In this document: positions 2,775-24,016 of the stretch, one piece after another
Layout of the letters: every line of letters starts with the position of its first letter
Position numbering within the stretch: position 1 is the first letter of the stretch
Assembly (NCBI GenBank): GCA_041937175.2
Contig: CP166615.1
Location: forward strand, 3,616,001-3,680,000
Reading direction: 5' to 3'
DNA: 64,000 nucleotides
From: Limnothrix sp. BL-A-16
GTDB taxonomy: Bacteria > Cyanobacteriota > Cyanobacteriia > CACIAM-69d
Notes under the pieces: model-generated
What the model was told of the DNA's origin: nothing
The model's input: only the letters and a program-made list of their open reading frames with translations
The model's database searches: none
Program-made: the position numbers and the translations under genes

Positions 2775-3076
2775 GATTTGCACCTCCTGCCGGAGAAAAA
2801 ACGCATTGAACGCTGGCGGGCCCCAACCATCGCCATCCAAACGATAGCAAGGAACCCAACGCTGAAACCTTCAACCGCACTGAAGACCACTCATCACCCC
2901 AGCAACCGACGCGCCGGCAGCCCAAGGAATCGCCACCCCCAGCAAACCACCCACAGCAACAATTGATTGAGAACCATTGAGCAGCCACAAGCGATGGCTT
3001 TTTTCTAGGCTATGACTGAAGCGCGACCGGAATCTATTCTGAATCGTCCCGCTTTCTCCGGTTCTAACAAAATTCT

Positions 3077-3625
3077 ATGCAGAAGATTCACCCGAATCTG
3101 CGGCGATGGTTGCTTGGCCTCGTGAGTCCCATGGTGATGATCGGGGCGATCGGGCTGCCGGCCCAAGCGGAGACCGTTGCGCCCAGCTTTTTTCAAGGAT
3201 CTACTCCCCTCAGCCTCACACTTCAGGAATTGGACGATCAGTGGCGTGTATTCAGCGTCACGGGGCAAATTGAAACCAGCAACATGCTGTCCCTAACGGC
3301 GGCAATTTTCGGCGCATCGCCCAGCGACTATTACACCAAGGGCGAGATTGCGGAGGTGGGCGGCGAGCGCTTTTTGGTTGCCTACCGTGTCATGCCCGGC
3401 AGCATTACGGAACCGGCCGCCGTCAATGGCAGCACGCCGATTCATGTGTCGCTGATTCATCTCGATCAGGTGGCTTCTTTGAATGATTTCCGGCCCTTCA
3501 GCCTGGTGACGGAGATCGATCGCCTCAAGGCCCTCATCCAAAGCCGCGCCGCTTCGCCGTTCAATATGTTCAACGGTGGCGGCCCACCGCGCTCTTTGCC
3601 GCCCCTTCCCCGATCGACTCCCTAA
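3077..3625 (+). CDS. Secreted hypothetical protein
   Basis: Signal peptide ending PAQA; 182-aa ORF with plausible composition. Confidence 0.7.
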   Translation: MQKIHPNLRRWLLGLVSPMVMIGAIGLPAQAETVAPSFFQGSTPLSLTLQELDDQWRVFSVTGQIETSNMLSLTAAIFGASPSDYYTKGEIAEVGGERFLVAYRVMPGSITEPAAVNGSTPIHVSLIHLDQVASLNDFRPFSLVTEIDRLKALIQSRAASPFNMFNGGGPPRSLPPLPRSTP

Positions 3626-3697
3626 AACCTTTTCCGAAAACTTTTCAGGGCGATCCAAACCGATCGCCCTTCCGATCGCCTCAGAGCAGCCCAACCG

Positions 3698-4678
3698 CTA
3701 CAGACCTTCCACAACGGGTTTACCAAACCAGCGATCGCTCAGCTTCACGTACCAAGCCGCCGCCTGTACCTGGATGATGTAGCTCATAGAAATAATTAGG
3801 GCAATTTCAGCGCCCGCCTTAGCCCCAAATACCGTCATTGCAATAGCCAGGGCGATCGACAAATTACGCATCACCGTGCCATAGACCAGAGCGATCGCAT
3901 CTTCGCGGGAAAACCAAATTTTGCCCACCACCGTACTCAACACAAAGTTGATCAGGTAAATCAGCATCAACGGCCCGAAATAGCCCAGAAACACGAGCGG
4001 TGAAGCCACAATCGCCTTCGCTTTCAGCGCCATTGCCACAAACACAATTCCCAACACGCCTAGGGTTGAAAAGACTGGAAACTTTTTCTTCAGGTTTCCC
4101 TCATACTTTTGTTTTCCCACCGTTGAAATCAGCACTTTTTTCGTGACCAAACCCAAAATCATGGGCAAAAACACCACGATCGCAATTTGCTTAAAGGTTT
4201 CCATCAAGGGAATTTCAATGGCTCGTCCTAGCAAAGCTTGGGCATAGAGGGGCGTGGCCAGAGAACCTAAAATCAAGCCAATCACGGTCATTTGAATTGC
4301 GGCTGTCAGGTTTCCCTTCGCAAAGCCTGTCCAAGAAATGGTCATGCCGCTGGTGGGAAGCAATCCCGTTAACAACAACCCCAGCCAAATCAGCGGTTGA
4401 TCGCGGAAGAAAAGCCAGCCAATACCATAAGCCAAAAATGGCACAAGTCCAAAGTTAATAAACTGGGCAACCCCTTGCAGTTTCCAGTTTCCCCCAGCCA
4501 CCAACTTGCCAAATTGCAAGTTGATCATCATTGGATAAACCATGAGAAAGGTGAGGGGAACAATTAGATCCTTGAGTCCCCCCGGATCAGTGACGAGTCC
4601 AAATAAAATTCCTGCAGCCATGAAAATTGGCACTGACCAAATCAGTTGATTTTGCAGCAGTGCTAGTAATTTCCACAT
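3698..4678 (-). CDS. Acr3/bile-acid:sodium symporter family transporter (arsenic-resistance-like)
   Basis: About 10 TM helices; MVYPMM, NFGLVP, PTSGM and RNLSIALAIA motifs. Confidence 0.8.
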   Translation of the reverse strand: MWKLLALLQNQLIWSVPIFMAAGILFGLVTDPGGLKDLIVPLTFLMVYPMMINLQFGKLVAGGNWKLQGVAQFINFGLVPFLAYGIGWLFFRDQPLIWLGLLLTGLLPTSGMTISWTGFAKGNLTAAIQMTVIGLILGSLATPLYAQALLGRAIEIPLMETFKQIAIVVFLPMILGLVTKKVLISTVGKQKYEGNLKKKFPVFSTLGVLGIVFVAMALKAKAIVASPLVFLGYFGPLMLIYLINFVLSTVVGKIWFSREDAIALVYGTVMRNLSIALAIAMTVFGAKAGAEIALIISMSYIIQVQAAAWYVKLSDRWFGKPVVEGL

Positions 4679-11010: not shown

Positions 11011-11349
11011 ATGACTACACGGCAACTCGACCCTAAACTGCAATCTCGATTAGGCATTACCCCAAAGCAGCTTGCTGACTTTTGCCAACGATGGAAAGTT
11101 GTTGAACTCGCGCTCTTTGGCTCGGTTCTCAGAGATGATTTTTCCGTGAATAGCGATGTGGATTTTTTGGTCAAATTTAGCCCTCATCATTCTTGGGGTT
11201 TAGAATTTATTCAAATGCGAGAAGAATTGGCAGTGCTCTTGCAACGCCCAGTGGATTTATTGACTCATCAAAGCGTTATGAATAGTCATAATACCCTCCG
11301 TCGTCAGGCTATTTTAGATTCGGCAGAGGTCATTTATGCAGCGAGATAA
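11011..11349 (+). CDS. MNT (minimal nucleotidyltransferase) antitoxin
   Basis: FGSVLRDDF..SDVD and VDL motifs. Confidence 0.88.
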   Translation: MTTRQLDPKLQSRLGITPKQLADFCQRWKVVELALFGSVLRDDFSVNSDVDFLVKFSPHHSWGLEFIQMREELAVLLQRPVDLLTHQSVMNSHNTLRRQAILDSAEVIYAAR

Positions 11350-11677
11350 GCAGACATTAATAGATATTTCTACAGCGATTCAGCAAGCATTGCTGTATTC
11401 TCAAGGGATTGATCAAGATAGTTTGAAGCAAGATGACGAGAAGCAAGCTGCTATTTTATATCGACTCATTATCATTGGAGAAGCGACTAAACGTCTATCT
11501 AATGAATTTCGTGATCAATATCCAATGATTCCTTGGCGGCAAATGGCTGGCTTGAGAGATGTTGTGATCCATGATTACGATGAATTAGACTTTGATATTC
11601 TCTGGAACGTAGTTCACCTCAACTTGCCTGATATGCTGCCCAAAATTCAAGCAATTCTAGAAAGTTATGACAGCTAG
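11336..11677 (+). CDS. HEPN (DUF86/HepT-like) ribonuclease toxin
   Basis: IIGEA, IPWRQMAGL, RDVVIHDY (RX4HXY); overlaps the MNT gene. Confidence 0.9.
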   Translation: MQRDKQTLIDISTAIQQALLYSQGIDQDSLKQDDEKQAAILYRLIIIGEATKRLSNEFRDQYPMIPWRQMAGLRDVVIHDYDELDFDILWNVVHLNLPDMLPKIQAILESYDS

Positions 11678-12011
11678 GGCGATCGCGCTACCTATCGAAC
11701 TACCCATGGAGAAGGTCACTGAGTTTTGTCACAAGTGGCAAGTAACAGAGTTTGCCCTTTTCGGCTCTGTCCTTCGCGACGATTTTCGCCCCGACAGCGA
11801 CATCGATATTATGGTGGAGTTTGATCCAGCGGCCTGCCCCACTTTCAGCACCTTAGACCGTATGGAAGCGGAGCTGAACATTATTTTTGGTCGCGATATT
11901 GATCTAATTACCCGCCAAGGGATTGCCAGCAGTCGAAACTATCTACGCCGCCACGAAATCCTGTCTTCTGCCCAGGTGATTTATGCCACGGGATCTTCAA
12001 TTCCTGCTTGA
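11667..12011 (+). CDS. MNT antitoxin, second copy
   Basis: FGSVLRDDFRPDSDID motif. Confidence 0.88.
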   Translation: MTARAIALPIELPMEKVTEFCHKWQVTEFALFGSVLRDDFRPDSDIDIMVEFDPAACPTFSTLDRMEAELNIIFGRDIDLITRQGIASSRNYLRRHEILSSAQVIYATGSSIPA

Positions 12012-12306
12012 CATGTTGCAATCCGCAGAGCTGATCTTGACCTACACTGCTCAATGCTCGAAGGATGAATTTATTGCAAATGTACAACTGCAAGATTCAG
12101 TGATTCGGCGGCTATTGGTGATTGCTGAGGCTGCAAGACGGATTTCCAAAAATACTTGGCAGTCGTTACCGAATATCTCTTGGCAAGAAATTCATGGAAT
12201 GCGAAATTGGTTAGTGCATGACAGCGATCAATCTGCATTATCTCCTGATCGTGACCTCGTCTTGCTCAAGATAGCAGCTAGTGATCGCAGTACAAAACCC
12301 TACTGA
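11983..12306 (+). pseudogene. HEPN (DUF86) toxin, C-terminally disrupted
   Basis: Normal HEPN up to GMRNWLVHD (about 12222), then unrelated sequence replaces the Y..D.DIVW helix. Confidence 0.65.
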
Positions 12307-12415
12307 GAGAAGTTATCTTACTATTTATGGTTTCATGCACAAACATGTGCATAATCATACCAAACAAGTAATTATCATAAGAATGATTGATTTTGTCTTT
12401 CTGAAGTTGTTAGGC

Positions 12416-12970
12416 TCACCGTATTGATTTTTCCCACCAACCTAACAAAGGATGATTCCTGTGTGGTTTGTATCTTCCTTTAGCTCGTATAGACTTAAGC
12501 ACAGCACATAATTCATCCAGACTAAGATTGTCTTTGTCTGACCAAGCTTTAATTATTTCTAAAGTTGATAGAACTTGTAAATGATTCGCTTCCTTTTGAG
12601 AGAATGAAATTGCTTTTTTGTCATCAGTAGCAATTGCCCATCCTCGACTAATCGCAATGGCACAAGTTGCAGATTCTCCATCATCACCTAGCTCAAAAGT
12701 GTAGTTTACAAATGCCTCTTCCTCAGACTCCGACTCAAAATCTACTACTGAAAGAAGTCCCTGTGCGATAGCTGTTTCAAACTGAACTGCACCTTCATTA
12801 TTCTCATTTGTAAGGCGTTGAAGAGTTATAAGTTCCTTGTTTTTCACAACTTCAGTAACTACAACTTGAGCAGGTATAGATTTCAAAATTTCAATGAAAT
12901 ACTCCGAAGCGCAAAAGTTCAGGATGCAACAAGCGTCAAGAACTATATGGGAGTGTCTAATTTGCATCAT
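12416..12970 (-). CDS. PIN-domain nuclease
   Basis: IVLDAC, LGDDGESATCAIA and IATDDKKA acidic PIN motifs; RBS AGGGAGA upstream of 12970. Confidence 0.8.
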   Translation of the reverse strand: MMQIRHSHIVLDACCILNFCASEYFIEILKSIPAQVVVTEVVKNKELITLQRLTNENNEGAVQFETAIAQGLLSVVDFESESEEEAFVNYTFELGDDGESATCAIAISRGWAIATDDKKAISFSQKEANHLQVLSTLEIIKAWSDKDNLSLDELCAVLKSIRAKGRYKPHRNHPLLGWWEKSIR

Positions 12971-12986
12971 CAATCTCCCTACTTTT

Positions 12987-14180
12987 CTACGCTTGACACA
13001 AGTCCAAGTGAGCAGTCCCCTCCGTAATTTCACTTGAATGCTCACGCAGTTCCTCTGCAATACGTCGAGCATCCAAACGGTCAACATTTAGAAGGTCTGC
13101 AAATCGTCCTTCAGTTATAAGCCCCTGATCTAACGCATCAATAGCAAGATGTTGATAGTGAACAGGGACAGTGTCAGTGCGCTGTGGAATACTTTCTAGA
13201 CCTAGCTCTTGCTGTACTTCTCTCACTTTTAAACCTCGATTTTTTAATCGGTCTCCAGTTCCCGAGGGAATAAGTCTAATACTTTCTAGACGATTAATCA
13301 AAGCCTCAATAGAGACTCCATAATAGTGAGCCAGTGTAAATAAGTTGGTAGGAGTAAACTTGCCATGCGCCTGGTACATATCATTAAAGCGCTTTAACAA
13401 GCCACTAGTTGGCATTAGAAAATAGTTGGGAAAGGCATCTCCCAAGCGCTCACTCTCTGGCTTTCTTTGATATTTTTCCTGGTAGTCAATAACTGGTTTT
13501 CTTCGATGTGCAAGAAAATGCAAATATTCATGAGCTAAAGACCACCGTCGCCGCTCTTCTGGGTGGTTGGAGTTAATGGCTATACACCCACCTAGCTTCT
13601 CGTCATAACTATAAAATCCTGAGTATTTAGACGGCATCTTCAAATAGAAAATGCGGAGTCCTACACTTTGCTCTAAAATATCTCTAAGAAGTGGAACTGG
13701 GCCATCGCCCAATCCCATCCTTTGGCGTTCAGCGATTGCAATACTTTCTGCTGCAGCCTCTATGGGCATCCTGGTCACATCATACTCTTGAGGGTAGTTT
13801 CGAGGAAGCGGAGCATCCACAATCTTCTCAAGCTCTAGATAATTGCGACATAGCTCCTCCAAGCGCTGAATAATTGGGGCAATTTGTACCTCTTCTTGTT
13901 CACTACGTTGATAAGCAGCACGAAACTGAACACTGAGAGGCTCAATGACAGGGCTAGGGCGAACAAAATCACTAATAGGTCGTCCGTAAGCACGAGCTAA
14001 TTTAATCAACTCATTTGGCTTTAGGCGACGTTCTCCTTTCTCAATTGCAACAATGGTAGTACGTGCAGCCTCAATAACCTTGGCCGCATCCGCCTGAGTC
14101 ATTCCACATTTCTTACGTGCTTGTTGCAGCAGCTCTCCTAGCTGACGCAAATCAATATTACCTAGAATATTAGTAGCCAT
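12987..14180 (-). CDS. XRE HTH fused to an ImmA/IrrE metallopeptidase
   Basis: ARKKCGMTQADAA..IEKGER HTH; RRRWSLAHEYLH (HExxH); GGAGGA RBS before ATG at 14180. Confidence 0.9.
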   Translation of the reverse strand: MATNILGNIDLRQLGELLQQARKKCGMTQADAAKVIEAARTTIVAIEKGERRLKPNELIKLARAYGRPISDFVRPSPVIEPLSVQFRAAYQRSEQEEVQIAPIIQRLEELCRNYLELEKIVDAPLPRNYPQEYDVTRMPIEAAAESIAIAERQRMGLGDGPVPLLRDILEQSVGLRIFYLKMPSKYSGFYSYDEKLGGCIAINSNHPEERRRWSLAHEYLHFLAHRRKPVIDYQEKYQRKPESERLGDAFPNYFLMPTSGLLKRFNDMYQAHGKFTPTNLFTLAHYYGVSIEALINRLESIRLIPSGTGDRLKNRGLKVREVQQELGLESIPQRTDTVPVHYQHLAIDALDQGLITEGRFADLLNVDRLDARRIAEELREHSSEITEGTAHLDLCQA

Positions 14181-14224
14181 AGCGTTTTCTCCTCCAGCCT
14201 TATTAAACAATGACCAGATGATTA

Positions 14225-15628
14225 TTAAAATGGCTGCTGATCATTTACTTCATTCAAGAGCAACGAGATACGGGATTCTACAACATTCCATTCGGTAACA
14301 TAAGATTGATAGAGACGAATCAAATTTTTCCGCATGTCGCTATGTAGTAGGACTTCTATCATAGCCATTCGATCCACAATGTCATCTAAATCTGGAAATC
14401 TTCGGGTTAAAGATTTCCATTGAAGATTAAAGTTATCTGAGACACTTAATAAATCTCTGAGAGTAGAAACTTGTGCCAGCATATGTTGAAAATATGAGCT
14501 AGTATCGCCTGCTGGCTTCTTGACATGGGGAACGATATATTGAGTTTTATCTTCTATTCGTGAGGCAGCAAGCGCCTGCCTTCTTAAGATACAAGAAGAA
14601 CAATACCCGCACTGGATGGGTTGCCGTCGATGTGGACTATCGCATGACATCGTTAGCTGCGGCAGGTCGTCCCTTTTATCTTCAGCCAAGGGTATGCACA
14701 TTTCAGCTTTAGTCTGGAAAAGGAAAGGGTTTTGTATTTTGAACTTCTCTCCTAAAAGCTCTGAAATAACGTCACTGACTCTTGACAAGGTTAATGGATG
14801 AACTGATCGAGAATGATCAAGTCCTATGGCAGACTTTCGGTATGGAAGATTGATTGCACCAACACCATTTTCATACAGGTAAAGAATTCGCTGCCCCATT
14901 AAGTATGCACAGGCTGCTCCTAGTAACATAAATACAATGCCTCGTGCGCGCGAAATTTTGCTCTTTCGATGCAAACTACTATCAGAGAAGCGAATTGGAA
15001 CCCGACATAAGTTCAAGCGGCTAGGGAAAGAGAATTGTAGTTCATGGAATACTTGTTTCTGACGAGCAAGGGTACTTTCATTACCACCTGTTCCAAACAG
15101 CATGAACGATGCTTCATTACTGGCTTTAAGTCGGCTGTAAAGACCAGCAAGCGCATCAAGTCCCCCACTCCATAGTGCTACCTCTTCTACATGAGAATTT
15201 GGTGATAATAGAAGGGGTTGACACTCAACAACGCGCCCTGAGTCAAGCCTCTTACAAAAATCGAATACCCATCGACTTCCAGTAGCCCATTCAAGTAGGC
15301 CAGAAAGTTTATCTTGAAAGGAGTTGGTATTCAATAATTCTGGGTGGCGTACTGGGAGACACACACAAATATAGGTCTGTTCTTGTCGGAGGTTTTGAAT
15401 AGTCAGACGATCAGTGGCATGAATAGCGACAGCAAGATCAATAATATCGGCAATGATTGATGGAAATCCTTGTTGTACCCGACACCTAAACTCTCTATCA
15501 TCTATAGTAATTCCTACGTTGCTTTCCTTCCCTTTGGAACGGTTAATGCAACGAACATTCCCATTACTATTCACGATGGGATCAAAAATCAAGGTATAAT
15601 TTTTGCTATACATATCATGCTCATCCAT
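14225..15628 (-). CDS. QueC-family PP-loop enzyme, QatC/Cap9-like (long form)
   Basis: SGGLDA PP-loop; DLAVAIHATDR, YENG, SRSVHP, NPFLFQTKAEM; Zn motif SC..CGYCSSC; 467 aa, about twice housekeeping QueC. Confidence 0.85.
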   Translation of the reverse strand: MDEHDMYSKNYTLIFDPIVNSNGNVRCINRSKGKESNVGITIDDREFRCRVQQGFPSIIADIIDLAVAIHATDRLTIQNLRQEQTYICVCLPVRHPELLNTNSFQDKLSGLLEWATGSRWVFDFCKRLDSGRVVECQPLLLSPNSHVEEVALWSGGLDALAGLYSRLKASNEASFMLFGTGGNESTLARQKQVFHELQFSFPSRLNLCRVPIRFSDSSLHRKSKISRARGIVFMLLGAACAYLMGQRILYLYENGVGAINLPYRKSAIGLDHSRSVHPLTLSRVSDVISELLGEKFKIQNPFLFQTKAEMCIPLAEDKRDDLPQLTMSCDSPHRRQPIQCGYCSSCILRRQALAASRIEDKTQYIVPHVKKPAGDTSSYFQHMLAQVSTLRDLLSVSDNFNLQWKSLTRRFPDLDDIVDRMAMIEVLLHSDMRKNLIRLYQSYVTEWNVVESRISLLLNEVNDQQPF

Positions 15629-15633
15629 AGCAT

Positions 15634-16266
15634 TTAACCTGCCAAGAGATTCTCGTCTAAATCTATCCTTTTATGTGAAAAACGCCTAGGTAGAGACAAG
15701 TTGGCTATACTTTGTTTGTTAATCGCATCTTTAGAAAATTTACTAATGCCATCCCTCAATTTTGGCTCTATTTCCTTAATACGCTCTGAAAGAGTTACTT
15801 GATCAATGCCCGCGTGGTGCTCGAAAGTAAGTGGAATGCACTCCTTAAATTCTGATTCATATACTTCATTTATATAGCGAAAAACTAGTGAAAATGAAAG
15901 GTTATCAATATCCATTTTTTGACCGTATCTCAGATCACAAATAACACTCTTGCCTGCACGAAGGGCAAGCTCCTTAAGATCCGGTCTTCCGTCAGATTGT
16001 TGCACCAACTTATCAAAATTCATACTCAAATCAGCATAGTCTCTTGACCCAAGTTCGTTGCTTGAAGTAAGAGCTTGATCAAGCATGTCTGCCATACTTT
16101 GACAAAGCCTGATAGGAAGATCACCTTTTTGAATTAAGTCTCTTTTAAGAGACTCCAGTAAAGCCCGAGAGCATTCATCGCTAGTTGCATTTCCCTCGCA
16201 AAGCCATTTGTATGGCCGCTGGTAAAGCGTTCTGAGCCGGTTATGAACAATATCTCCATCGGGCAT
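15634..16266 (-). CDS. Hypothetical alpha-helical protein, first gene of the QueC operon
   Basis: 210-aa ORF starting MPDGDIVH; 5-nt gap to the QueC gene; no motif recognised. Confidence 0.75.
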   Translation of the reverse strand: MPDGDIVHNRLRTLYQRPYKWLCEGNATSDECSRALLESLKRDLIQKGDLPIRLCQSMADMLDQALTSSNELGSRDYADLSMNFDKLVQQSDGRPDLKELALRAGKSVICDLRYGQKMDIDNLSFSLVFRYINEVYESEFKECIPLTFEHHAGIDQVTLSERIKEIEPKLRDGISKFSKDAINKQSIANLSLPRRFSHKRIDLDENLLAG

Positions 16267-16634
16267 AGCAGAACCTTTGTTGGTTAGAGTTTGTTTCCAA
16301 TATCAAGGTAGCTCGTGTTTCTGACATTGTCAATTGCTAGCATTGATTTTTAGAAAAAATGTCAGAACTGGGGAGCGTGCAGGGGTCAAAATGGTTTTTG
16401 CGAGAAAAGCCAACTTTAAAATCACTTTTTGGGAAATTTTCATATTCTCACTTGAAGAACAATATGCATAACATATACACTTGGCTCCTGAAAGGCAGTT
16501 TGTTATACGATTGGGGCGGACTGCGGCAGGTGATAGACATTGCTAGATGGCAAAGCGTGGGCTACTGCCGTTAGAAGCTTTTGTCTCTTTTAGGAGACAG
16601 TCCTATCTAGACCCGTTGCTCAATTATTCGACAC

Positions 16635-16663
16635 AAAAGGGGCTGAGCAAATGCTCAGCCCCT
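16635..16663 (-). terminator. Rho-independent terminator of metH
   Basis: Inverted repeat AGGGGCTGAGCA/TGCTCAGCCCCT with an adjacent A-run, just downstream of metH. Confidence 0.8.
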
Positions 16664-16686
16664 GGTCATTTAGATAGGAATTGTGA

Positions 16687-19600
16687 CTACGCTGTGAAGT
16701 ACTTCGCGATCGGGTGGTAGGCAATAATCGCCGTCGTGGACTGCTCTGGATAGAGCTGCTCGCTCTCGTCCATATACATGTTGATTCGATCGGTTTGCAA
16801 CAACTGCAACTGAATCAACTGATCCTGAATATTCGGACAAGCCGGATAGCCAAAGCTATAGCGTGACCCCTGATAGCGTTGCGCCAAAATGTCCCGCAAA
16901 TTGTCCGGCTCCTGCGCACCAAACCCCAACTCCCGCCGGATGCGCGCGTGCGTCCATTCCGCCAGCCCTTCCGCCGTTTGCACCGCCATCCCGTGGAAGT
17001 ACAAATAATCGGAATATTGATTCGCCCCAAACAGCTTTTGGGCATATTCCGTGGCAACTTCGCCCACCGTCACCGCCTGCATTGGAAACACATCAAAGAT
17101 GCCCAACTCCTTCGGTGCAAAGAAATCGGCAATGCAAAGACGACGCAACGATCCTTGGCGCGGAAATTCCAATTGGGCGATCGGCTCTAGGTTGGTTTGC
17201 CCCGCGCTGACCGCTTCCGGATCGTAGATATAGAGCGTATTCCCCTCCGAATTGCAGGGAAAATAGCCATAGATCACTTGCGGTTGCAGCAGGTTTTCCG
17301 CGATCACTTTCGCCTTCCATTCCGCCAAAATCGGCCGCACTTTCGCATCAATAAAGGCATCATAATCGGCGCGCGATTGCTCCTTGGGTTTGCGGAATTG
17401 CCATTGCCCCACAAACAACGCTTGCAAGTCGAGATAGTTGAAAATTTCCTCGATCGCAATGTCCGCCGGGTTCAACAATTGGGTTCCCCAGAACGGCGGT
17501 TGGGGGCGATCGATATTCGGGTCAACCGCTTCCGATCGCCGCGTATCAATCACCTTCGGTTTCTCGGCCTTGGCGGGTTTCTCAGCCCCATCATCACCGT
17601 CGGTCTTAGCTTGGCCATAGCGCCCCAATGCCGCCGGATCATCGGCAAATTCCCCTAAAAAGCCCTCAGAATCGTCCCATTTTTCAGCGGCTTTCGCGGG
17701 CATCAACTTATCCATAAAGCTGAGATCCGAGAAGGCATCTTTGCCATAGATCACCCGACCGCGATAGGTCTTTTGGCAATCCTCATAGACAAATTTCGGC
17801 GTGAGGGCCGCACCGCCCAAAATCACAGGCACGGTGATGCCGCGATCGTTGAAGGTCTCCAGATTTTCCTTCATGAACGCCGTGGATTTCACCAACAAAC
17901 CGCTCATGGCAATGCAATCGGGTTTGTGTTGCTCATAGGCATCAATGATATTTTCCACAGGCTGTTTAATGCCCAGATTAATCACCCGATAGCCATTGTT
18001 GGTGAGGATAATATCCACCAGGTTTTTGCCAATGTCATGCACATCGCCCTTGACCGTAGCGATCACGAAAGTGCCCTTGGCGTTGTTGCTGGTTTCGGAT
18101 TTCTCCATGTGCGGCTCCAAAAAGGCCACCGCCGCTTTCATGGTTTCCGCCGACTGCAACACAAAGGGCAACTGCATTTGACCTGACGCAAACAATTCGC
18201 CCACCACCTTCATCCCATCTAACAGATAGGTGTTGATGATTTCCAGCGGGGGATATTGGGTCATGGCCTGCTGCAAGATTGTTTCGAGGCCCAGCCGTTC
18301 GCCGTCGATAATGTGGCGTTTGAGCTTCTCTTCCAAGGAGAGATTTTCATCCACGCCCGCCGCTTTTTTGGTAGTGGCTCCTTCAAAGAGCTGCGTCAGT
18401 TCAGTTAGGGGATCATAAACACAAACATCCCCCTCAAACCGGCGACGATCGAAGATCAAATCCCGGCAGACTTCCTGATGTGCTGGCTCAATTTTAGCCA
18501 GGGGCAAAATCTTGGCGGCACTGACGATCGAGGAGTCCATTCCCACTTGCATACATTCATGCAGGAACATGGAGTTCAACACCTGCCGCGCCGCCGGATT
18601 CAGACCAAAGGAGATATTGGAAACGCCGAGCAAAATGTGGCAGCCGGGTAGGTTTTCCCGAATCAGTCGAATCGATTCGATCGTGGCGGCTCCGTTTTTG
18701 CGGTCTTCTTCAATCCCGGTGGAAATCGGCAGAGCCAGGGTATCGAAGAAGATTTCATGGGCAGGAATCCCAAACTCCACCGCCTGCCGATAGGCCCGCT
18801 GGGCGATCGCGAATTTCTTCTCGGCGGTGCGGGCCATGCCGTCTTCATCGATCGTCCCGATCACCACCCCAGCGCCGTAGGTTTTCGCCAGTTCCAGCAC
18901 TTTCAAAAAGCGCTCTTCACCATCTTCATAGTTGGTGGAATTTAGCAAACATTTGCCGCCGGCCACTTTCAAACCGGCTTCCATTTTTTGCCATTCCGTG
19001 GAGTCCAACATCAACGGCAAAGTGACATTATTCACCAGCCGCGACACCAGCTCCCGCATATCCCGCTCGCCATCGCGGCCCACATAGTCCACGTTCACAT
19101 CGAGCACATGAGCGCCTTCCCGCACTTGGGCTTTGGCTAGGGAAACCAGCCCATCCCAATCTTCAGCATTCAGCAATTCTCGACATTTTTTGGAACCGCT
19201 GGCGTTCAGGCGCTCACCTACAATCAGGAAGGAATTATCTTGCTGATAAAGCTGGGTTCCATAGATCGAAGCGGCGGCGGGTTCGTAATGCAATGGGTTG
19301 CGATCGAACCGGCCCGGCTCCAGGTTTTCGGGAACGCGAATATCACGGGCTTTTGGTTGTAGAGACTCGGAAATACCGACCAATTCCTTGATGTGATCGG
19401 GGCGCGTCCCGCAGCAGCCGCCCACCACTTGCACGCCCCAATCTTCCACGAATTTATGCATCGCCATCCGCAGTTCCATCGGCGTTAGGCGATAGTGGGC
19501 ATGGCCGCCGACGTTTTCGGGCAGACCCGCGTTGGGAATGCAGGAGACCACAAAGGGCGATCGCTCGCAAAGGTAGCGAATATGTTCCGCCATTCGATCG

Positions 19601-20295
19601 GGGCCGGTGGCACAATTCAGCCCCAAAATATCGATCGGGTAGGGTTCCAAAATCGCCACCACGGCGTTAATATCCGTCCCCACCAACATCGTGCCGGTGG
19701 TTTCCATGGTCACGGAAACCATTAATGGAATCCGCGATCCTTTCTCCGCAAAAACTTCCTCGATCGCATTCAGTGCTGACTTAATTTGCAACACATCCTG
19801 GCAGGTTTCCACAATGAATAAATCTGCCCCCCCATCAAACAGGGCCGCCGCCTGTTCGGCATAGGCCGCTTTCATCGTGTCGTAGTCAATGTGGCCGAGG
19901 GTGGGCAGCTTGGTTCCCGGCCCCATGGAACCGGCCACAAAACGCGGTTTGTCGGGGGTGGAAAACTCGCGGGTCAGCTCTTTGGCCAGCTCCACGGCCT
20001 TGCGGTTGAGTTCATAGGCTTGGTCGGCTAAATCGTATTCCGCCAAGACGATCGACGTTCCCCCAAAGGTGTCGGTTTCGATTACATCTGCGCCCGCTTT
20101 CAGATATTCCCGATGCACATAGGCAACAGCTTCCGGCTTGCTTTGCACCAAATACTCATTACACCCCTCATACTGCGGGCCGCCAAAGTCTTCGGCCGTC
20201 AGGTTTTGCGCCTGGAGGAGCGTCCCCATGCCGCCGTCAAAAACGATCACCGGGCGGGAAGGATGATGCAACCGTTCCAAAAAGGGATGAGTCAT
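16687..20295 (-). CDS. metH: Cobalamin-dependent methionine synthase
   Basis: [26 protein letters not shown]12 motif, [10 protein letters not shown]. Confidence 0.97.
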
Positions 20296-20505
20296 GGTCA
20301 GGGATGGAGCAGCAATTGGAATGCGAATGGGTTGGGGCGTGGCACTGTACTGTTGACCAGCACGGTTGATTAGCCCACGGGGCCAATGTTCCTATTGTGC
20401 CGGATTTGGCCGAGAGGTCTAGGCCCGGCGTGATTTCCACAACCCAGCAGCACCGATCGCCCAGGAAGTCTGAACAGCCCAAACGGCTACCGGGTGGGTT
20501 TGATC

Positions 20506-20605
20506 GATCGACAGAGACAAGGGGCTGAGGGGCGATCGTCAAATCGCCTGAAACCCTGGTTCCACCGTGGCGAGATCGACAGAGACAAGGGGCTTAAGCC
20601 CCTTG
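20506..20605. repeat. REP-like palindrome plus partial MITE copy
   Basis: Direct repeat GATCGACAGAGACAAGGGGCT (20506, 20574); palindrome CAAGGGGCTTAAGCCCCTTG at 20586-20605; core shared with 30621-30651. Confidence 0.8.
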
Positions 20606-20638
20606 CCTAGGGCGGTGAGGGGATGGAAGAACTGTTGA

Positions 20639-23600
20639 TTAACCTTCAGCGATCAGGGCCTGGTGAATGAAGCTGGCCAGGTCGGCGCGGGTGGTGGGCT
20701 GATTGGGATTCAGGCGATCGGGACTGGGTTGCCCTTGCAGGATTTGGCGCTTGAGGGCGGCGGCAATTTTGCCCTGCACGGCACTGGGAATTTCGGCGCG
20801 ATCGTCCAGCACCGCCAAGCCTTCGGGGGACTCATCGGGCCAAGCCAGCCCTCCGGCCAGGGCCGCGGCCAACTGCCAACGGGGCACGCCCAGCTCGGGG
20901 CCAAATCGATCGGCATCCATACCCGAGAGAAATTGGCCCCGGTAGGCGCGATCGATCGCCTCAGCGGCCCAATAGCCCGCAGGCACATCTTGAAAGACCT
21001 TGCTCGATCGTCGATCGCTCGGATCAAAAGCCTTGACCAACACCGCCGCCAATTGGGCCCGGTTAATCGGCTCATCGGGATGGAACGAGCCATCCTCGTA
21101 GCCGCTGAGGATGCCCTGTGCCGCCAGGGTATTGATGAAGGGGGCGGCCCAATGGTTAGCGATGTCGCTGAAGGGGCTGCTGGACGGGTCGCTGTTGGTG
21201 GTGTTGCTGCCCAAATCGACAATGTAGGGCGATCGCAGGGCGCTGGCCAGACCCTTGGTGACCAGGGCTTGGTAAAGGAAGGCCGATACTTCCCCCCGGG
21301 TGATGGCCCGCTCGGCTTCCAGGCGGGTGAGGTCTGGATAGTTCACCACCATGCGCCGCACCGTGGCCGTGGCGATCGCATCGCGGGCAAAGTTGGGAAT
21401 CCGAATCGCATCGCTGTAATAGCTCAAAACACTCAAGGTTCCCCCCGTCAAACCCAGGCCATTCACCAGGGCGACCAACGCTTGGGCCCGGGTGAGGTTG
21501 GCATTGGGCTTAAAGCTGCCGTCGGGAAACCCTGCCAATAGTCCGCGTCGATAGCATTGGTCGATCGCCCCAGCGGCCCAAAAACTGGCCGGCACATCCC
21601 AAAATTTCGCCCCCGATCGCAGGTTAGGCAAGCTGGGAAAAGCCTTCACCAACAGGGCCGCAAACTGCCCCCGCGTCAGGTTGGTGTTGGGACGAAAGGT
21701 GCCATCCTCCTTGTAGCCGCTCATGATTTGCCGTTGGATCAACTGGCGAATAAACGCTTCGGCCCAATGGCCGGTCACGTCATCCCCCAGCGGGCCGGGA
21801 CTGGGCGTTGGGCCAGGGGTCGGAACCGGACTGCCGCCGCCCGCCCGTCGCCGGGCCTCCAACACCGCCTTGTAAGCGTTCACCTTGCCATAGCCAAACC
21901 ACCGGGAAAACCCGCGACTGTCATAGGAACCATAGCGAAATCCAAACTGTGGATCGGCATTGGTGTCCACAATTTTGTCCGTCGTTGATTCCAGAATCTG
22001 TTTCACCTCCCGCGCCGTCAGGTTGGGATTCGCGGACAACACCAGGGCTGCCACGCCCGCCACCACCGGGCAAGCGCTGGATGTGCCCCCAAAGTCGGCG
22101 GTGAAGTCCGTGCTGCTGTAGCCTGCGGATCCCAGGCGATCGGTCGTGAACACTCCGGCTCCGGCCAGGTTGCTGGTCACCTGGGGCGGAGTCAGAATGG
22201 CACCGGTTTCCGGCAACCAAATTCCCGGCGGTGCATTGTTGCTGGGGGCGCAAACGGAAATGTTATCGCCCCAATTGCTGTAGGCGGCTTTGCGGTTCAA
22301 GCTGGTGGATGCAGAAACGGCAATCACGTCCGGATGGGCCGCAAACCCCGACAGCCATTCCGTGGATCCCGACAACACCTTGTTGGGCCAACCCTGTTCA
22401 TTCACCGTGCCATTCACGGGCCGATTGGCATTGCCGGCCGCAAACACAATCACACAGCCCTTGCCATTGCGGCCCTGGGTGGCGGCCCGGCTGAGGGCGG
22501 CCCGTTGCCGGGTGGAGAGGGGAAAGTAAATGCTGCCTGGGCCCCAGCTACAGGAAACGACGGCGGCCCCCCGAGACACACACCAATCAAACAGTTCTTC
22601 CACCGCTTGGTCATCTAAGTAGCCGGTGGTGCGAATGGGCATCAAGGCACAACGGGGAGCCACCCCAACGATGCCGCTGCCGTTTTCTTCGGCCACGGCA
22701 ACCCCGGCACAGGCGGTTCCGTGGCTGTCGTCCCGCGTGCCGGGCAGGGGGTTAAAGTCATTGTCTTTAAAGTCTTTGGGGCTGACGATTTTGCCGGTTC
22801 CCTGAAAGTCCGGGTGGCTGAGGTCAATGCCATCGTCGGCGATCGCCACGATGACGGATCGATCGCCCCGGGTAATGTCCCAGGCCTTTTCCGCATCGAT
22901 ATGGGAACCGGCGGTGATGCTGCTGCCCCCGTTGTTTTGCAAATACCACTGGGAACTGAAAAACCCATCCCGCGGCCGATAGAAGGGCTGGCTTTCAAGG
23001 ATGGCATTGGGTTCGGCACTCAGAACGGCCGGATTTTCCAGCAGGGTGTTGGCAATTTTCAGGGGGTTCAGGGGCGTTCGATCGCTCAGGCGATAGATAA
23101 ACGCATTGGGAATGCCGTCCAGGGGTTTCACCAACACCAGCCCCAACCCTTGGGCGATCGCGTCCACCGCCTGGGCCACCAGGGTGGGATGAAACACGAT
23201 CGTCACCTCATCCCCCAAATAGACCCGCGTGGCTCCCCGGCCTTGGTATTGGTAAACGTGGCTCACGTAGTCAAAGGCTCCGGAGCGGCGAGCTTCGTCC
23301 ATCACCGGATCCAACCGGGCTGGAGCCACCAGCAACTCCACCAGGGGCACCCCCCGCCCTAGCGGCCGCACCTGGGTTACGTCGGGCCAGCGGGTGGGAT
23401 CGATCGGCTGGGCGGCTTTGGGGCGCACCACGAAGCGATCGGGCACTTTTTCCAGCAGCACCTCATCTCCGCCCCGTTGCAACACCAGGCCCAGAAACTG
23501 GGGCGGCACACCAACGGCCCCCACAGAGTCCAAATCGGACGGCACGGGATGAGAAGAAGGTTGCAAATCCGCCACGGGGAATATCTCCTGAAACAGGCTT

Positions 23601-23653
23601 GGAACGGGCTTGGAAGAAGATTGCGCTGCAAACGACAGGACGCTACGCCACAA
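20639..23653 (-). CDS. S8 subtilase with multiple C-terminal SLH domains
   Basis: Catalytic triad motifs IADDG, HGTACAG, GTSSACP; repeated SLH motifs (HWA..GY.DG.F.P..TR); start uncertain. Confidence 0.92.
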   Translation of the reverse strand: MWRSVLSFAAQSSSKPVPSLFQEIFPVADLQPSSHPVPSDLDSVGAVGVPPQFLGLVLQRGGDEVLLEKVPDRFVVRPKAAQPIDPTRWPDVTQVRPLGRGVPLVELLVAPARLDPVMDEARRSGAFDYVSHVYQYQGRGATRVYLGDEVTIVFHPTLVAQAVDAIAQGLGLVLVKPLDGIPNAFIYRLSDRTPLNPLKIANTLLENPAVLSAEPNAILESQPFYRPRDGFFSSQWYLQNNGGSSITAGSHIDAEKAWDITRGDRSVIVAIADDGIDLSHPDFQGTGKIVSPKDFKDNDFNPLPGTRDDSHGTACAGVAVAEENGSGIVGVAPRCALMPIRTTGYLDDQAVEELFDWCVSRGAAVVSCSWGPGSIYFPLSTRQRAALSRAATQGRNGKGCVIVFAAGNANRPVNGTVNEQGWPNKVLSGSTEWLSGFAAHPDVIAVSASTSLNRKAAYSNWGDNISVCAPSNNAPPGIWLPETGAILTPPQVTSNLAGAGVFTTDRLGSAGYSSTDFTADFGGTSSACPVVAGVAALVLSANPNLTAREVKQILESTTDKIVDTNADPQFGFRYGSYDSRGFSRWFGYGKVNAYKAVLEARRRAGGGSPVPTPGPTPSPGPLGDDVTGHWAEAFIRQLIQRQIMSGYKEDGTFRPNTNLTRGQFAALLVKAFPSLPNLRSGAKFWDVPASFWAAGAIDQCYRRGLLAGFPDGSFKPNANLTRAQALVALVNGLGLTGGTLSVLSYYSDAIRIPNFARDAIATATVRRMVVNYPDLTRLEAERAITRGEVSAFLYQALVTKGLASALRSPYIVDLGSNTTNSDPSSSPFSDIANHWAAPFINTLAAQGILSGYEDGSFHPDEPINRAQLAAVLVKAFDPSDRRSSKVFQDVPAGYWAAEAIDRAYRGQFLSGMDADRFGPELGVPRWQLAAALAGGLAWPDESPEGLAVLDDRAEIPSAVQGKIAAALKRQILQGQPSPDRLNPNQPTTRADLASFIHQALIAEG

Positions 23654-24016
23654 CGACGGACATTGGCCAGCCAGAAATCAGCCAGCCAGGACGGTCAACG
23701 CCGCCCCCAATCTAGGCTGATCCGACGCGGAGGGGCCCAAGGGCGATCGAACCTTGTCGTAGAATAGAGCCGATTTGACCATCACAACGGGTACAAGCCT
23801 CGCCCTCGGAGGGTGGCTTGATCCCAGTCGCGGGCGGGCAGTCCGAGACTCAAAACGGACGCGGGGGCCAGCGTGAATCCAGTTCGCTGGTAGCGACCCC
23901 TGAAGCGTCAACCCATGGTCTAGTCGAGCAACTCCGGTTGCTTGGTTAGCACCAGAATCCCCACGCCCTTGGGGTGGGGAGGATGTCAAGCGGCTCCTAA
24001 TCAATCCACCCAGCCC

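Follow-up and report, generated by a model that had tools for sequence, protein, structure and literature searches.

The two described defense systems that come closest to the locus reported here are QatABCD and the type IV cyclic oligonucleotide-based antiphage signaling system (CBASS). In three papers, the MGTS sequence at the N-terminus of QatB is reported to occupy the active site of QatC and to be essential for defense (PMC13279940, PMC13376578, and PMC13639016). Cap9 from type IV CBASS is described as a minimal enzyme of ~185 amino acids (aa) in which the active site of canonical QueC is retained (PMC13329287, section 7). The same section states that ~34% of the genes in the QatC cluster are adjacent to qatA and qatD, and it does not discuss the remainder; among the neighbors of this cluster entered in the available part of the supplement, there are only KAP_NTPase and TatD_DNase, with no M78 or HTH entry (PMC13329287). 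In this report, we describe a cassette of four genes from the cyanobacterium Limnothrix sp. BL-A-16 that encodes a helical protein (gene 1), a QatC-type enzyme (gene 2), an XRE-M78 protein (gene 3), and a PIN-fold nuclease (gene 4). The cassette occupies positions 12416-16266 on the minus strand of a stretch of 64,000 nucleotides (nt) from contig CP166615.1 (positions 3,616,001-3,680,000), which is called the window below and to which all coordinates refer. By analogy with the systems named above, it is rather probable that the four genes form one autoregulated operon, related to Qat and differently built, in which a PIN effector is restrained by an autorepressor/antitoxin; a function in defense is predicted.

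The intergenic gaps of 5, 44, and 16 nt follow from the list of open reading frames (ORFs) together with ATG start codons at 14180 and 12970, and they agree with the four tightly spaced minus-strand genes described in an earlier annotation made from the DNA letters only (the sequence-only reading). That annotation did not recognize a named system, and the present comparisons led to the same result. The PADLOC v2 library of hidden Markov models, which consists of single-protein models rather than system rules, holds no model that matches gene 1 or gene 4. Full-text searches of the literature, which did not extend to bioRxiv supplements, turned up no account of a QueC/QatC enzyme combined with an XRE-M78 protein and a PIN nuclease, and none was met in the structural and family papers on Qat or in the preprint on deazaguanylation. 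The cassette thus looks like an undescribed relative of Qat that has another partner motif and another effector and that carries its own repressor. In place of the QatA KAP NTPase and the QatD TatD nuclease, the operon contains the XRE-M78 protein and the PIN nuclease. As the sequence-only reading had stated, no KAP ATPase, TatD, CD-NTase, or TGT (Cap10) homolog is found in the cassette or directly beside it, the remainder of the window not having been scanned for these proteins; the lack of a CD-NTase and of Cap10 sets the cassette apart from type IV CBASS.

Gene 2 (14225-15628, minus strand) encodes a PP-loop enzyme of the QueC family with 467 aa, where QatC proteins have ~400-470 aa. The protein matches the PADLOC model for QatC at 2.8e-44 and scores 161.6 bits against the NCBIfam QatC model (NF041925), which is below the equivalog cutoff of 280. 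Against the housekeeping model TIGR00364, it reaches 12.6 bits, where the cutoff is 150.3. The match to Pfam QueC (PF06508) is restricted to residues 293-355. When a profile built from 47 homologs was compared with the PDB, QatC (9vlk_A) was found with an E-value of 2.2e-33 over residues 59-377. The motifs RxRxxxF, ExG, HP, P(x)4TK, and the zinc motif CGxCxxC, which are given as the defining motifs of the QatC cluster (PMC13329287, section 7), are invariant among the 47 homologs, and the motifs on which the sequence-only reading had based its assignment of a long QatC-type enzyme, rather than the tRNA-modifying form, are invariant or nearly so in the same set. A canonical QueC that scores 255 bits is encoded elsewhere in the same genome. 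A third, weak PF06508 (PP-loop) match (G000:C1:2416064-2416255) is located within a 415-aa open frame.

The relationship of gene 2 to these enzymes was addressed with a quick maximum-likelihood tree of 37 sequences (27 from four-gene loci, six QatC proteins from QatABCD operons, the alphaproteobacterial four-gene sequences, and the QueC from the Limnothrix genome itself). The 27 four-gene sequences form a single clade with a support value of 97 in the Shimodaira-Hasegawa-like approximate likelihood ratio test (SH-aLRT), five of the six QatABCD QatC proteins form a separate clade (SH-aLRT 97), and the alphaproteobacterial four-gene sequences form a third (SH-aLRT 100). The branching order among the three clades is left unsettled by the tree. 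The housekeeping QueC was found on a very long outgroup branch, and the proposal that gene 2 groups with QatC, far from the QueC of its own genome, is therefore upheld. Judged from its motifs and its place in this tree, gene 2 is a QatC-type QueC that is distinct from the housekeeping enzyme. It shares with the QatC of QatABCD the N- and C-terminal extensions of the PP-loop enzyme and the QatC-specific motifs; it differs in the separate clade, in the sub-cutoff score against the QatC model, and in a PP-loop that reads SGGLDA instead of SGGxDS. Type IV CBASS is similar in having a QueC-family enzyme for which the N-terminus of a partner is the presumed target, whereas the length of gene 2 and its QatC motifs are unlike the minimal Cap9.

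Gene 1 (15634-16266, minus strand) encodes an all-helical protein of 210 aa that is QatB-like in position and for which QatB is the best, though not a decisive, fold match. No sequence-family match was obtained with the Pfam, PADLOC v2, or NCBIfam models. The structural model (predicted local distance difference test score, pLDDT, of 86.4) is a seven-helix bundle with disorder at both ends. A Foldseek search of this model against the PDB returned nothing at E <= 0.001, and the best score in the ESM Atlas (0.82) is at the level of noise. After structural realignment with VIA-align, the best match was QatB (9y01_A), with a root-mean-square deviation of 5.0 over 165 residues and a Z-score of 7.8, which falls in the range reached by unrelated helical proteins. 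The two top rows are the QatB chains from crystal structures of QatBC, and these are the sole whole-domain matches for gene 1; the next row, which is not related, has a Z-score of 7.2 over 76 residues. An hhalign comparison of the gene 1 family with six QatB sequences gave a probability of 1.9%, and the gene 1 profile found only helical repeats at chance level among the PDB sequences. From the Z-score and the hhalign result, gene 1 is called QatB-like in position and architecture and is at most a candidate homolog.

All 71 full-length homologs of gene 1 begin with M-x-D-x-D (M-P-D-G-D in Limnothrix). At position 2, there are 54 Pro, 11 Ala, two Thr, one Ser, and one Leu, with the residue absent in two sequences, so that Pro, Ala, Thr, or Ser accounts for 68 of the 71. 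The residue between the two aspartates is Gly in 66 of the 71, and the plasmid versions start with MSDGPH. Pro, Ala, Thr, and Ser at position 2 permit removal of the initiator methionine, and what is conserved in gene 1 is thus a free alpha-amine with an acidic motif behind it. This N-terminus parallels the MGTS start of QatB, which is found in six of the six QatB sequences compared here, but it is not glycine. Gene 1 is located directly upstream of gene 2 in the related loci, often overlapping it, and this position was counted in favor of the analogy with QatB, as were the reports that QatBC by itself is enough for defense against some phages and that the N-terminus of QatB lies in the active site of QatC (PMC13279940 and PMC13376578). 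The operon therefore resembles QatABCD in having a helical partner gene directly upstream of the enzyme, with a flexible and strictly conserved N-terminus, and a nuclease in the same operon; it is unlike QatABCD in the MPDGD start and in the lack of sequence homology between gene 1 and QatB. Gene 1 had been labeled an unknown protein in the sequence-only reading. This label can now be replaced, since gene 1 is best read, by analogy, as a QatB-like partner and the probable substrate of the gene 2 enzyme.

The C-terminus of gene 1 is also conserved among the homologs, as a tail of the form LPRR..IDLDEDLL (LPRR..IDLDE.LL where the variable position is left open). The C-termini of gene 1 (15634-15700) and gene 3 (12987-13030) are both short acidic tails with (I/L)-D-L, namely ..RIDLDENLLAG and ..AHLDLCQA, which are conserved in the respective homologs. 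From its sequence, the shared tail may be a common docking motif. Trimming of gene 1 by gene 3 to a bare Gly4 was also considered and rejected: Gly4 is replaced in five of the 71 homologs, and the catalytic glutamate of gene 3 is mostly missing.

Gene 3 was found at 12987-14180 (minus strand; ORF 12987-14210 with the ATG at 14180). It encodes 397 aa that comprise an XRE-type helix-turn-helix (HTH), an M78 (ImmA/IrrE) domain, and, toward the C-terminus, a helical part, and it is the presumed autorepressor/antitoxin. The Pfam matches are HTH_3 at 4.2e-15 (56 bits) and Peptidase_M78 at 1.7e-23 (83.2 bits). In PADLOC, the protein matches RmrA, the antitoxin of RosmerTA, at 1.8e-25, capP at 1.4e-14, and capH at 3.8e-8. 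The zinc motif in Limnothrix is HEYLH, and the residues H217, H221, and E244 are kept in 76 of 76 homologs. Residue 218 is Glu in 23 of these homologs, Gly in 46, Asp in six, and Ala in one, and it alternates among Glu, Gly, and Asp between close relatives. The plasmid versions retain HELGH or HELAH. With the catalytic glutamate replaced in 53 of the 76 homologs, proteolysis cannot be a general switch. The two domains of an XRE-ImmA/IrrE peptidase named in the sequence-only reading are thus both present, whereas a family-wide protease role is doubtful. A zinc-dependent role in binding or sensing fits better with this pattern of residues, and the switching at residue 218 suggests that many M78 domains are pseudopeptidases or sensors. 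Gene 3 is the best conserved of the four genes, with identities of 47-85% overall and 47-64% in the noncyanobacterial loci.

Gene 4 (12416-12970, minus strand; ORF 12416-13087 with the ATG at 12970) encodes 184 aa and is the presumed effector or toxin. It has no match to the models of Pfam (including PIN), PADLOC v2, or NCBIfam. The structural model, with a pLDDT of 93, was matched by Foldseek to PIN/VapC structures with a probability of 1.0, template modeling scores of 0.5-0.7, and a best E-value of 5.4e-4. Among 48 sequences, D12, E46, G98, E99, T115, and D116 are invariant. From the model, gene 4 is a nuclease of the PIN/VapC fold with conserved acidic residues, and the PIN nuclease proposed in the sequence-only reading was therefore recovered by structure where no sequence model detects it. 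Gene 4 resembles the VapBC PIN toxins in its fold and in the acidic residues D12, E46, E99, and D116; it is unlike them in the lack of a Pfam PIN match, in ~45 extra C-terminal residues, and in its partner, which is an XRE-M78 protein instead of a VapB-type antitoxin.

Two further groups of systems are similar to genes 3 and 4. In RosmerTA and in other XRE-M78 (COG2856/ImmA-IrrE) pairs of the spr1629 family, a small toxin-like gene comes directly after that for a fused HTH-M78 protein, as it does here; the RmrA models match gene 3, and the pair of genes 3 and 4 persists alone in some genomes. The differences are that the toxin of the cassette has a PIN fold with no match to RmrT or any other PADLOC model, that the QatBC-like genes normally stand ahead of the pair and share a single operator with it, and that gene 3 is far below the NCBIfam cutoff for spr1629 (51.8 bits versus 335). 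CapH/CapP of CBASS and ImmR/ImmA of ICEBs1 also control a conflict operon with an HTH repressor and an M78 peptidase, with a palindromic operator at the promoter. Unlike these, the HTH and M78 domains of gene 3 are fused and encoded inside the operon, and the catalytic glutamate has been lost in most of the homologs.

The conservation of the cassette was determined from a scan of species representatives (one genome per species), in which 136 genomes were found to have a relative of gene 2, and the best 80 loci were kept. The same four-gene order was found in 77 of the 77 loci with enough sequence, which establishes the co-occurrence that the sequence-only reading had put forward for a neighborhood search. 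In 74 of these loci, all four genes were detected by tblastn; L073, L076, and L079 were added from an in-place gene 1 ORF that starts with MPDGD, MPDYD, and MPDSD, respectively. In the remaining three of the 80 loci, a contig end truncates the cassette. The four-gene loci are from Cyanobacteriota, Chloroflexota, Armatimonadota, Gemmatimonadota, Balneolota, and Rhodothermota. The median intergenic gaps across the related loci are -4, 16, and 18 nt. Gene 1 is the least conserved of the four (~20% identity in other phyla), and the frame of gene 2 is interrupted in approximately seven four-gene loci. Clustering of the 332 flanking ORFs gave 288 clusters, of which 262 have a single member, and no fifth conserved gene was found among the 80 loci. 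Because the flanks are unrelated between loci, the unit consists of exactly four genes. Genes 1 and 2 were not found without genes 3 and 4, or with another partner, in any of the 80 loci. One 1.8-kb contig binned as Planctomycetota (L043) carries a cassette that is 59-73% identical to the cyanobacterial form and is probably a misbinned cyanobacterial contig.

Within the cyanobacteria, 18 of 401 sampled genomes match gene 2, and 14 of these 18 matches are full-length; the single sampled genome from the same family as Limnothrix sp. BL-A-16 lacks the cassette. The four-gene architecture was also found on four plasmids of Alphaproteobacteria (Pannonibacter, Methylocystis, Bosea, and Labrenzia), with a QueC protein that is ~24% identical to that of Limnothrix and, in the Methylocystis copy, a broken QueC frame. 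The genes next to the plasmid copies, which include restriction-modification genes, code for an Eco57I-type methylase, an AAA_13 ATPase, AbiEi/AbiEii, AbiJ, and an N6 methylase. A tblastn search of plasmids found no copy at >=60% identity, and classical qatABCD operons were recovered in the same search. The matches in viral collections are one from IMG/VR at 23% identity and two Listeria phage records at 24.7%. With only these distant viral matches, the cassette is not typically carried by phages. The distribution of the cassette is patchy and transfer-like, as would be expected for a widespread family that moves horizontally.

A single operator appears to serve the whole cassette. Upstream of gene 1, the -35 hexamer TTGACA overlaps the palindrome TGACA-A-TGTCA in the sequence TTGACAATGTCAG (16321-16333, minus strand), which is the presumed operator of the XRE-HTH protein. 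A candidate -10 hexamer, TACCTT, is located 17 nt after the -35 box (16305-16310, minus strand), and TAnCTT is found in the same place in many loci. An upstream half-site, CTGACAT (16359-16365, minus strand), forms a distal operator box that is common to most related loci at ~22-30 nt upstream of the palindrome; the distance at this locus is ~25 nt. An exact copy of the 13-mer (its center being A or T) is present once upstream of gene 1 in 41 loci, which include Anaerolineales and Chloroflexia (Chloroflexota), Gemmatimonadales, Rubrivirga (Rhodothermota), and two of the alphaproteobacterial plasmids. When up to two mismatches are allowed, 58 of 71 loci contain the operator, for the most part at a distance of 64-71 nt ahead of the start codon. 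The 11-mer palindrome has a single occurrence in the genome of 4.56 Mb, at this site. A scan with the sigma-70 consensus returned no more sites than in shuffled sequences and missed the conserved promoter, with TACCTT under the threshold. From its conservation and position, the palindrome is presumed to be an operator that specifically serves the HTH of gene 3, which is itself nearly invariant.

The profile of gene 4 matches 30 of the 401 cyanobacterial genomes, compared with 18 for gene 2. Nine of the 14 genomes that match gene 4 and not gene 2 make up a two-gene set (L086-L094). All nine hold genes 3 and 4 (62-81% and 48-71% identity, respectively), and the genes upstream are unrelated. Codons 1-36 of gene 1 are retained in L093, and a recognizable gene 1 remnant is retained in L089; in L090 and L094, the operator is located directly before gene 3. 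A quick tree built from gene 3 intersperses the nine two-gene rows with the four-gene rows and needs seven changes, at least six of which are forced by starred branches. From these sequences, the two-gene loci are deletion derivatives of the four-gene operon. Genes 1 and 2 have thus been lost repeatedly, with genes 3 and 4 retained along with the promoter, and no case of the opposite loss was found. Because the loss of genes is asymmetric, genes 3 and 4 are read as a self-sufficient output module that resembles a toxin-antitoxin pair, on which the other two genes depend as the input module. In L092, an ORF of 519 aa with no known family (2976-4535, minus strand) is located directly upstream of the XRE-M78 gene on the same strand.

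In the mechanism that we propose, the HTH domain of gene 3 would bind the palindrome that is observed over the -35 box and would thereby keep the expression of the operon low. By analogy with QatC-QatB and Cap9-CdnD, the QatC-type ATP-pyrophosphatase encoded by gene 2 would form a complex with the gene 1 protein and would act on its free N-terminus, which is Pro/Ala-Asp-Gly-Asp once the methionine has been removed. The likely reaction, by the same analogy, would be the ATP-dependent conjugation of a 7-deazaguanine-type carboxylate. Genes 3 and 4 would form a toxin-antitoxin-like core in which the XRE-M78 protein restrains the PIN nuclease. Upon a trigger, for example an infection, the state of the complex between genes 1 and 2 would be passed to the M78 domain; the nuclease would then be released, and growth or phage replication would halt. 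The steps of modification, neutralization, and release are drawn from the anatomy of the cassette and from the conservation patterns, and the predicted role in defense rests on analogy and on the plasmid neighborhoods.

Several of the observations weigh against this mechanism. To the structural and sequence distance between gene 1 and QatB, the SGGLDA form of the PP-loop, and the replacement of residue 218 in gene 3 are added the following. The N-terminus of gene 1 is without the Gly2 that is required in QatB and CdnD. The chemistry of QatC is itself unsettled, with no ATP pyrophosphatase activity reported with 7-carboxy-7-deazaguanine (CDG) in PMC13639016. The cassette frequently loses genes 1 and 2 or carries them in broken form, and they are thus dispensable for its upkeep. 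The chromosomal flanks are mostly housekeeping genes, with defense- or mobile-type domains in ~12 of 117 scanned flank ORFs. In favor of gene 1 as the counterpart of QatB, there is a protein of 645 aa (P0192) in which a gene 1 homolog (hhalign probability of 99.1% and E-value of 8.4e-19 to the gene 1 family) is fused to a QueC-type domain; because it is a singleton from a single 5.7-kb contig, it is taken as a hint only, and it may be a genuine fusion or a frameshift artifact.

The four genes might also be two independent modules that travel together, a minimal QatBC-type defense pair and an XRE-M78/PIN pair that stabilizes the island and provides promoter control, with no cross-talk between them. 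QatBC alone is reported to be sufficient for defense against some phages (PMC13279940), genes 3 and 4 are alone in nine genomes, and the XRE-M78 protein matches the RosmerTA antitoxin models. We consider this arrangement unlikely, however: the same pairing and order, with one operator upstream, recur across seven phyla and down to ~24% QueC identity, genes 1 and 2 are never alone or with a different partner in the 80 loci, and the position of gene 3 as the best conserved of the four genes would be unusual for a plain antitoxin. An explanation closer to Qat is a three-part variant with an added regulator, in which the PIN nuclease replaces QatD and is handled by gene 1, and the XRE-M78 protein is only a transcription switch like CapH/CapP. 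The capP and capH matches of gene 3 and the conserved operator that overlaps the -35 box are consistent with such a variant, as is the binding of the QatB N-terminus to the nuclease QatD in the Qat system (PMC13639016). It is distinctly improbable in our estimation, given that the two-gene derivatives keep an intact PIN nuclease with gene 3 as the only companion, for which direct neutralization fits better than repression alone, and that a CapP-type switch requires the proteolysis for which most of the homologs lack the catalytic glutamate.

A function outside of immunity is very unlikely. The cassette would then be a mobile addiction or stress-response cassette, or a regulator of RNA processing, and the QueC-type enzyme would make a small molecule. 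The mostly housekeeping flanks, the few copies in viral collections, the lack of close plasmid copies, and a QatC substrate that is yet to be established (PMC13639016) would be compatible with such a role, whereas the membership in the QatC family with extensions for a protein partner, the invariant free N-terminus on the adjacent partner, the defense genes next to the plasmid copies, and the patchy, transfer-like distribution all speak against it. Among these explanations, we favor the autoregulated, Qat-related operon with a restrained PIN effector. A more specific version of this operon can be formulated, in which the QatC-type enzyme puts a nucleobase-like group on an N-terminus other than glycine (Pro or Ala once the methionine is gone), the zinc site of an M78 domain that has ceased to be a protease in most members of the family reads the modified acidic N-terminus or the conserved acidic tail of gene 1, and occupancy of this site frees the PIN nuclease. 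This version is speculative, and we do not expect it to hold in full.

The surroundings of the cassette were also analyzed. The fraction of G and C is 0.37-0.46 over 12000-16500 and 0.52-0.63 over 16500-24000, which contains metH and the region beyond. The HIP1 octamer GCGATCGC is present in 66 copies in the window versus 1.8 expected, and a scan of the window found none between 11686 and 18803. The low G and C content and the gap in HIP1 were counted as support for a foreign origin of the cassette. The cassette is bordered by MetH and, at its other end, by two nucleotidyltransferase/HepT pairs. The AT-rich block devoid of HIP1 and the placement between metH and toxin-antitoxin pairs are thus as described in the sequence-only reading. 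The two consecutive MNT/HepT-like toxin-antitoxin pairs (11011-12306, plus strand) adjoin the cassette, and a HIP1 site at 11679 falls inside them. A terminator-like hairpin located 3' of metH (16638-16663, minus strand), with an 11-bp stem that contains eight G-C pairs and is followed by a run of T, marks the upstream boundary of the cassette. In one library of a wastewater metatranscriptome, three contigs of 161-287 nt are 99-100% identical to 15168-15352, 15990-16276, and 16480-16640, and cover segments of genes 2 and 1 as well as the spacer upstream. Because contigs from an RNA library cannot mark a transcript start and may derive from DNA, no claim of expression is made from them.

That enzymes of the QueC family deazaguanylate proteins was discovered only very recently, and the role of QatBC and even the substrate of QatC are still being worked out. 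The cassette family provides a second and widespread setting for a QatBC-like pair, with 136 species-representative genomes, six phyla, and the plasmids of Alphaproteobacteria. The signaling step is made testable by the simple PIN output, the built-in repressor with a defined operator, and the natural two-gene derivatives, which are useful as controls. The cassette further suggests that the partner N-terminus recognized by such an enzyme need not be glycine, and that catalysis may be dispensable for many of the M78 "peptidases" of conflict systems. If the more specific version of the mechanism were true, a protein-nucleobase conjugate would be the internal signal of an immune switch of the toxin-antitoxin type, and the M78 "peptidases" would be ligand sensors.

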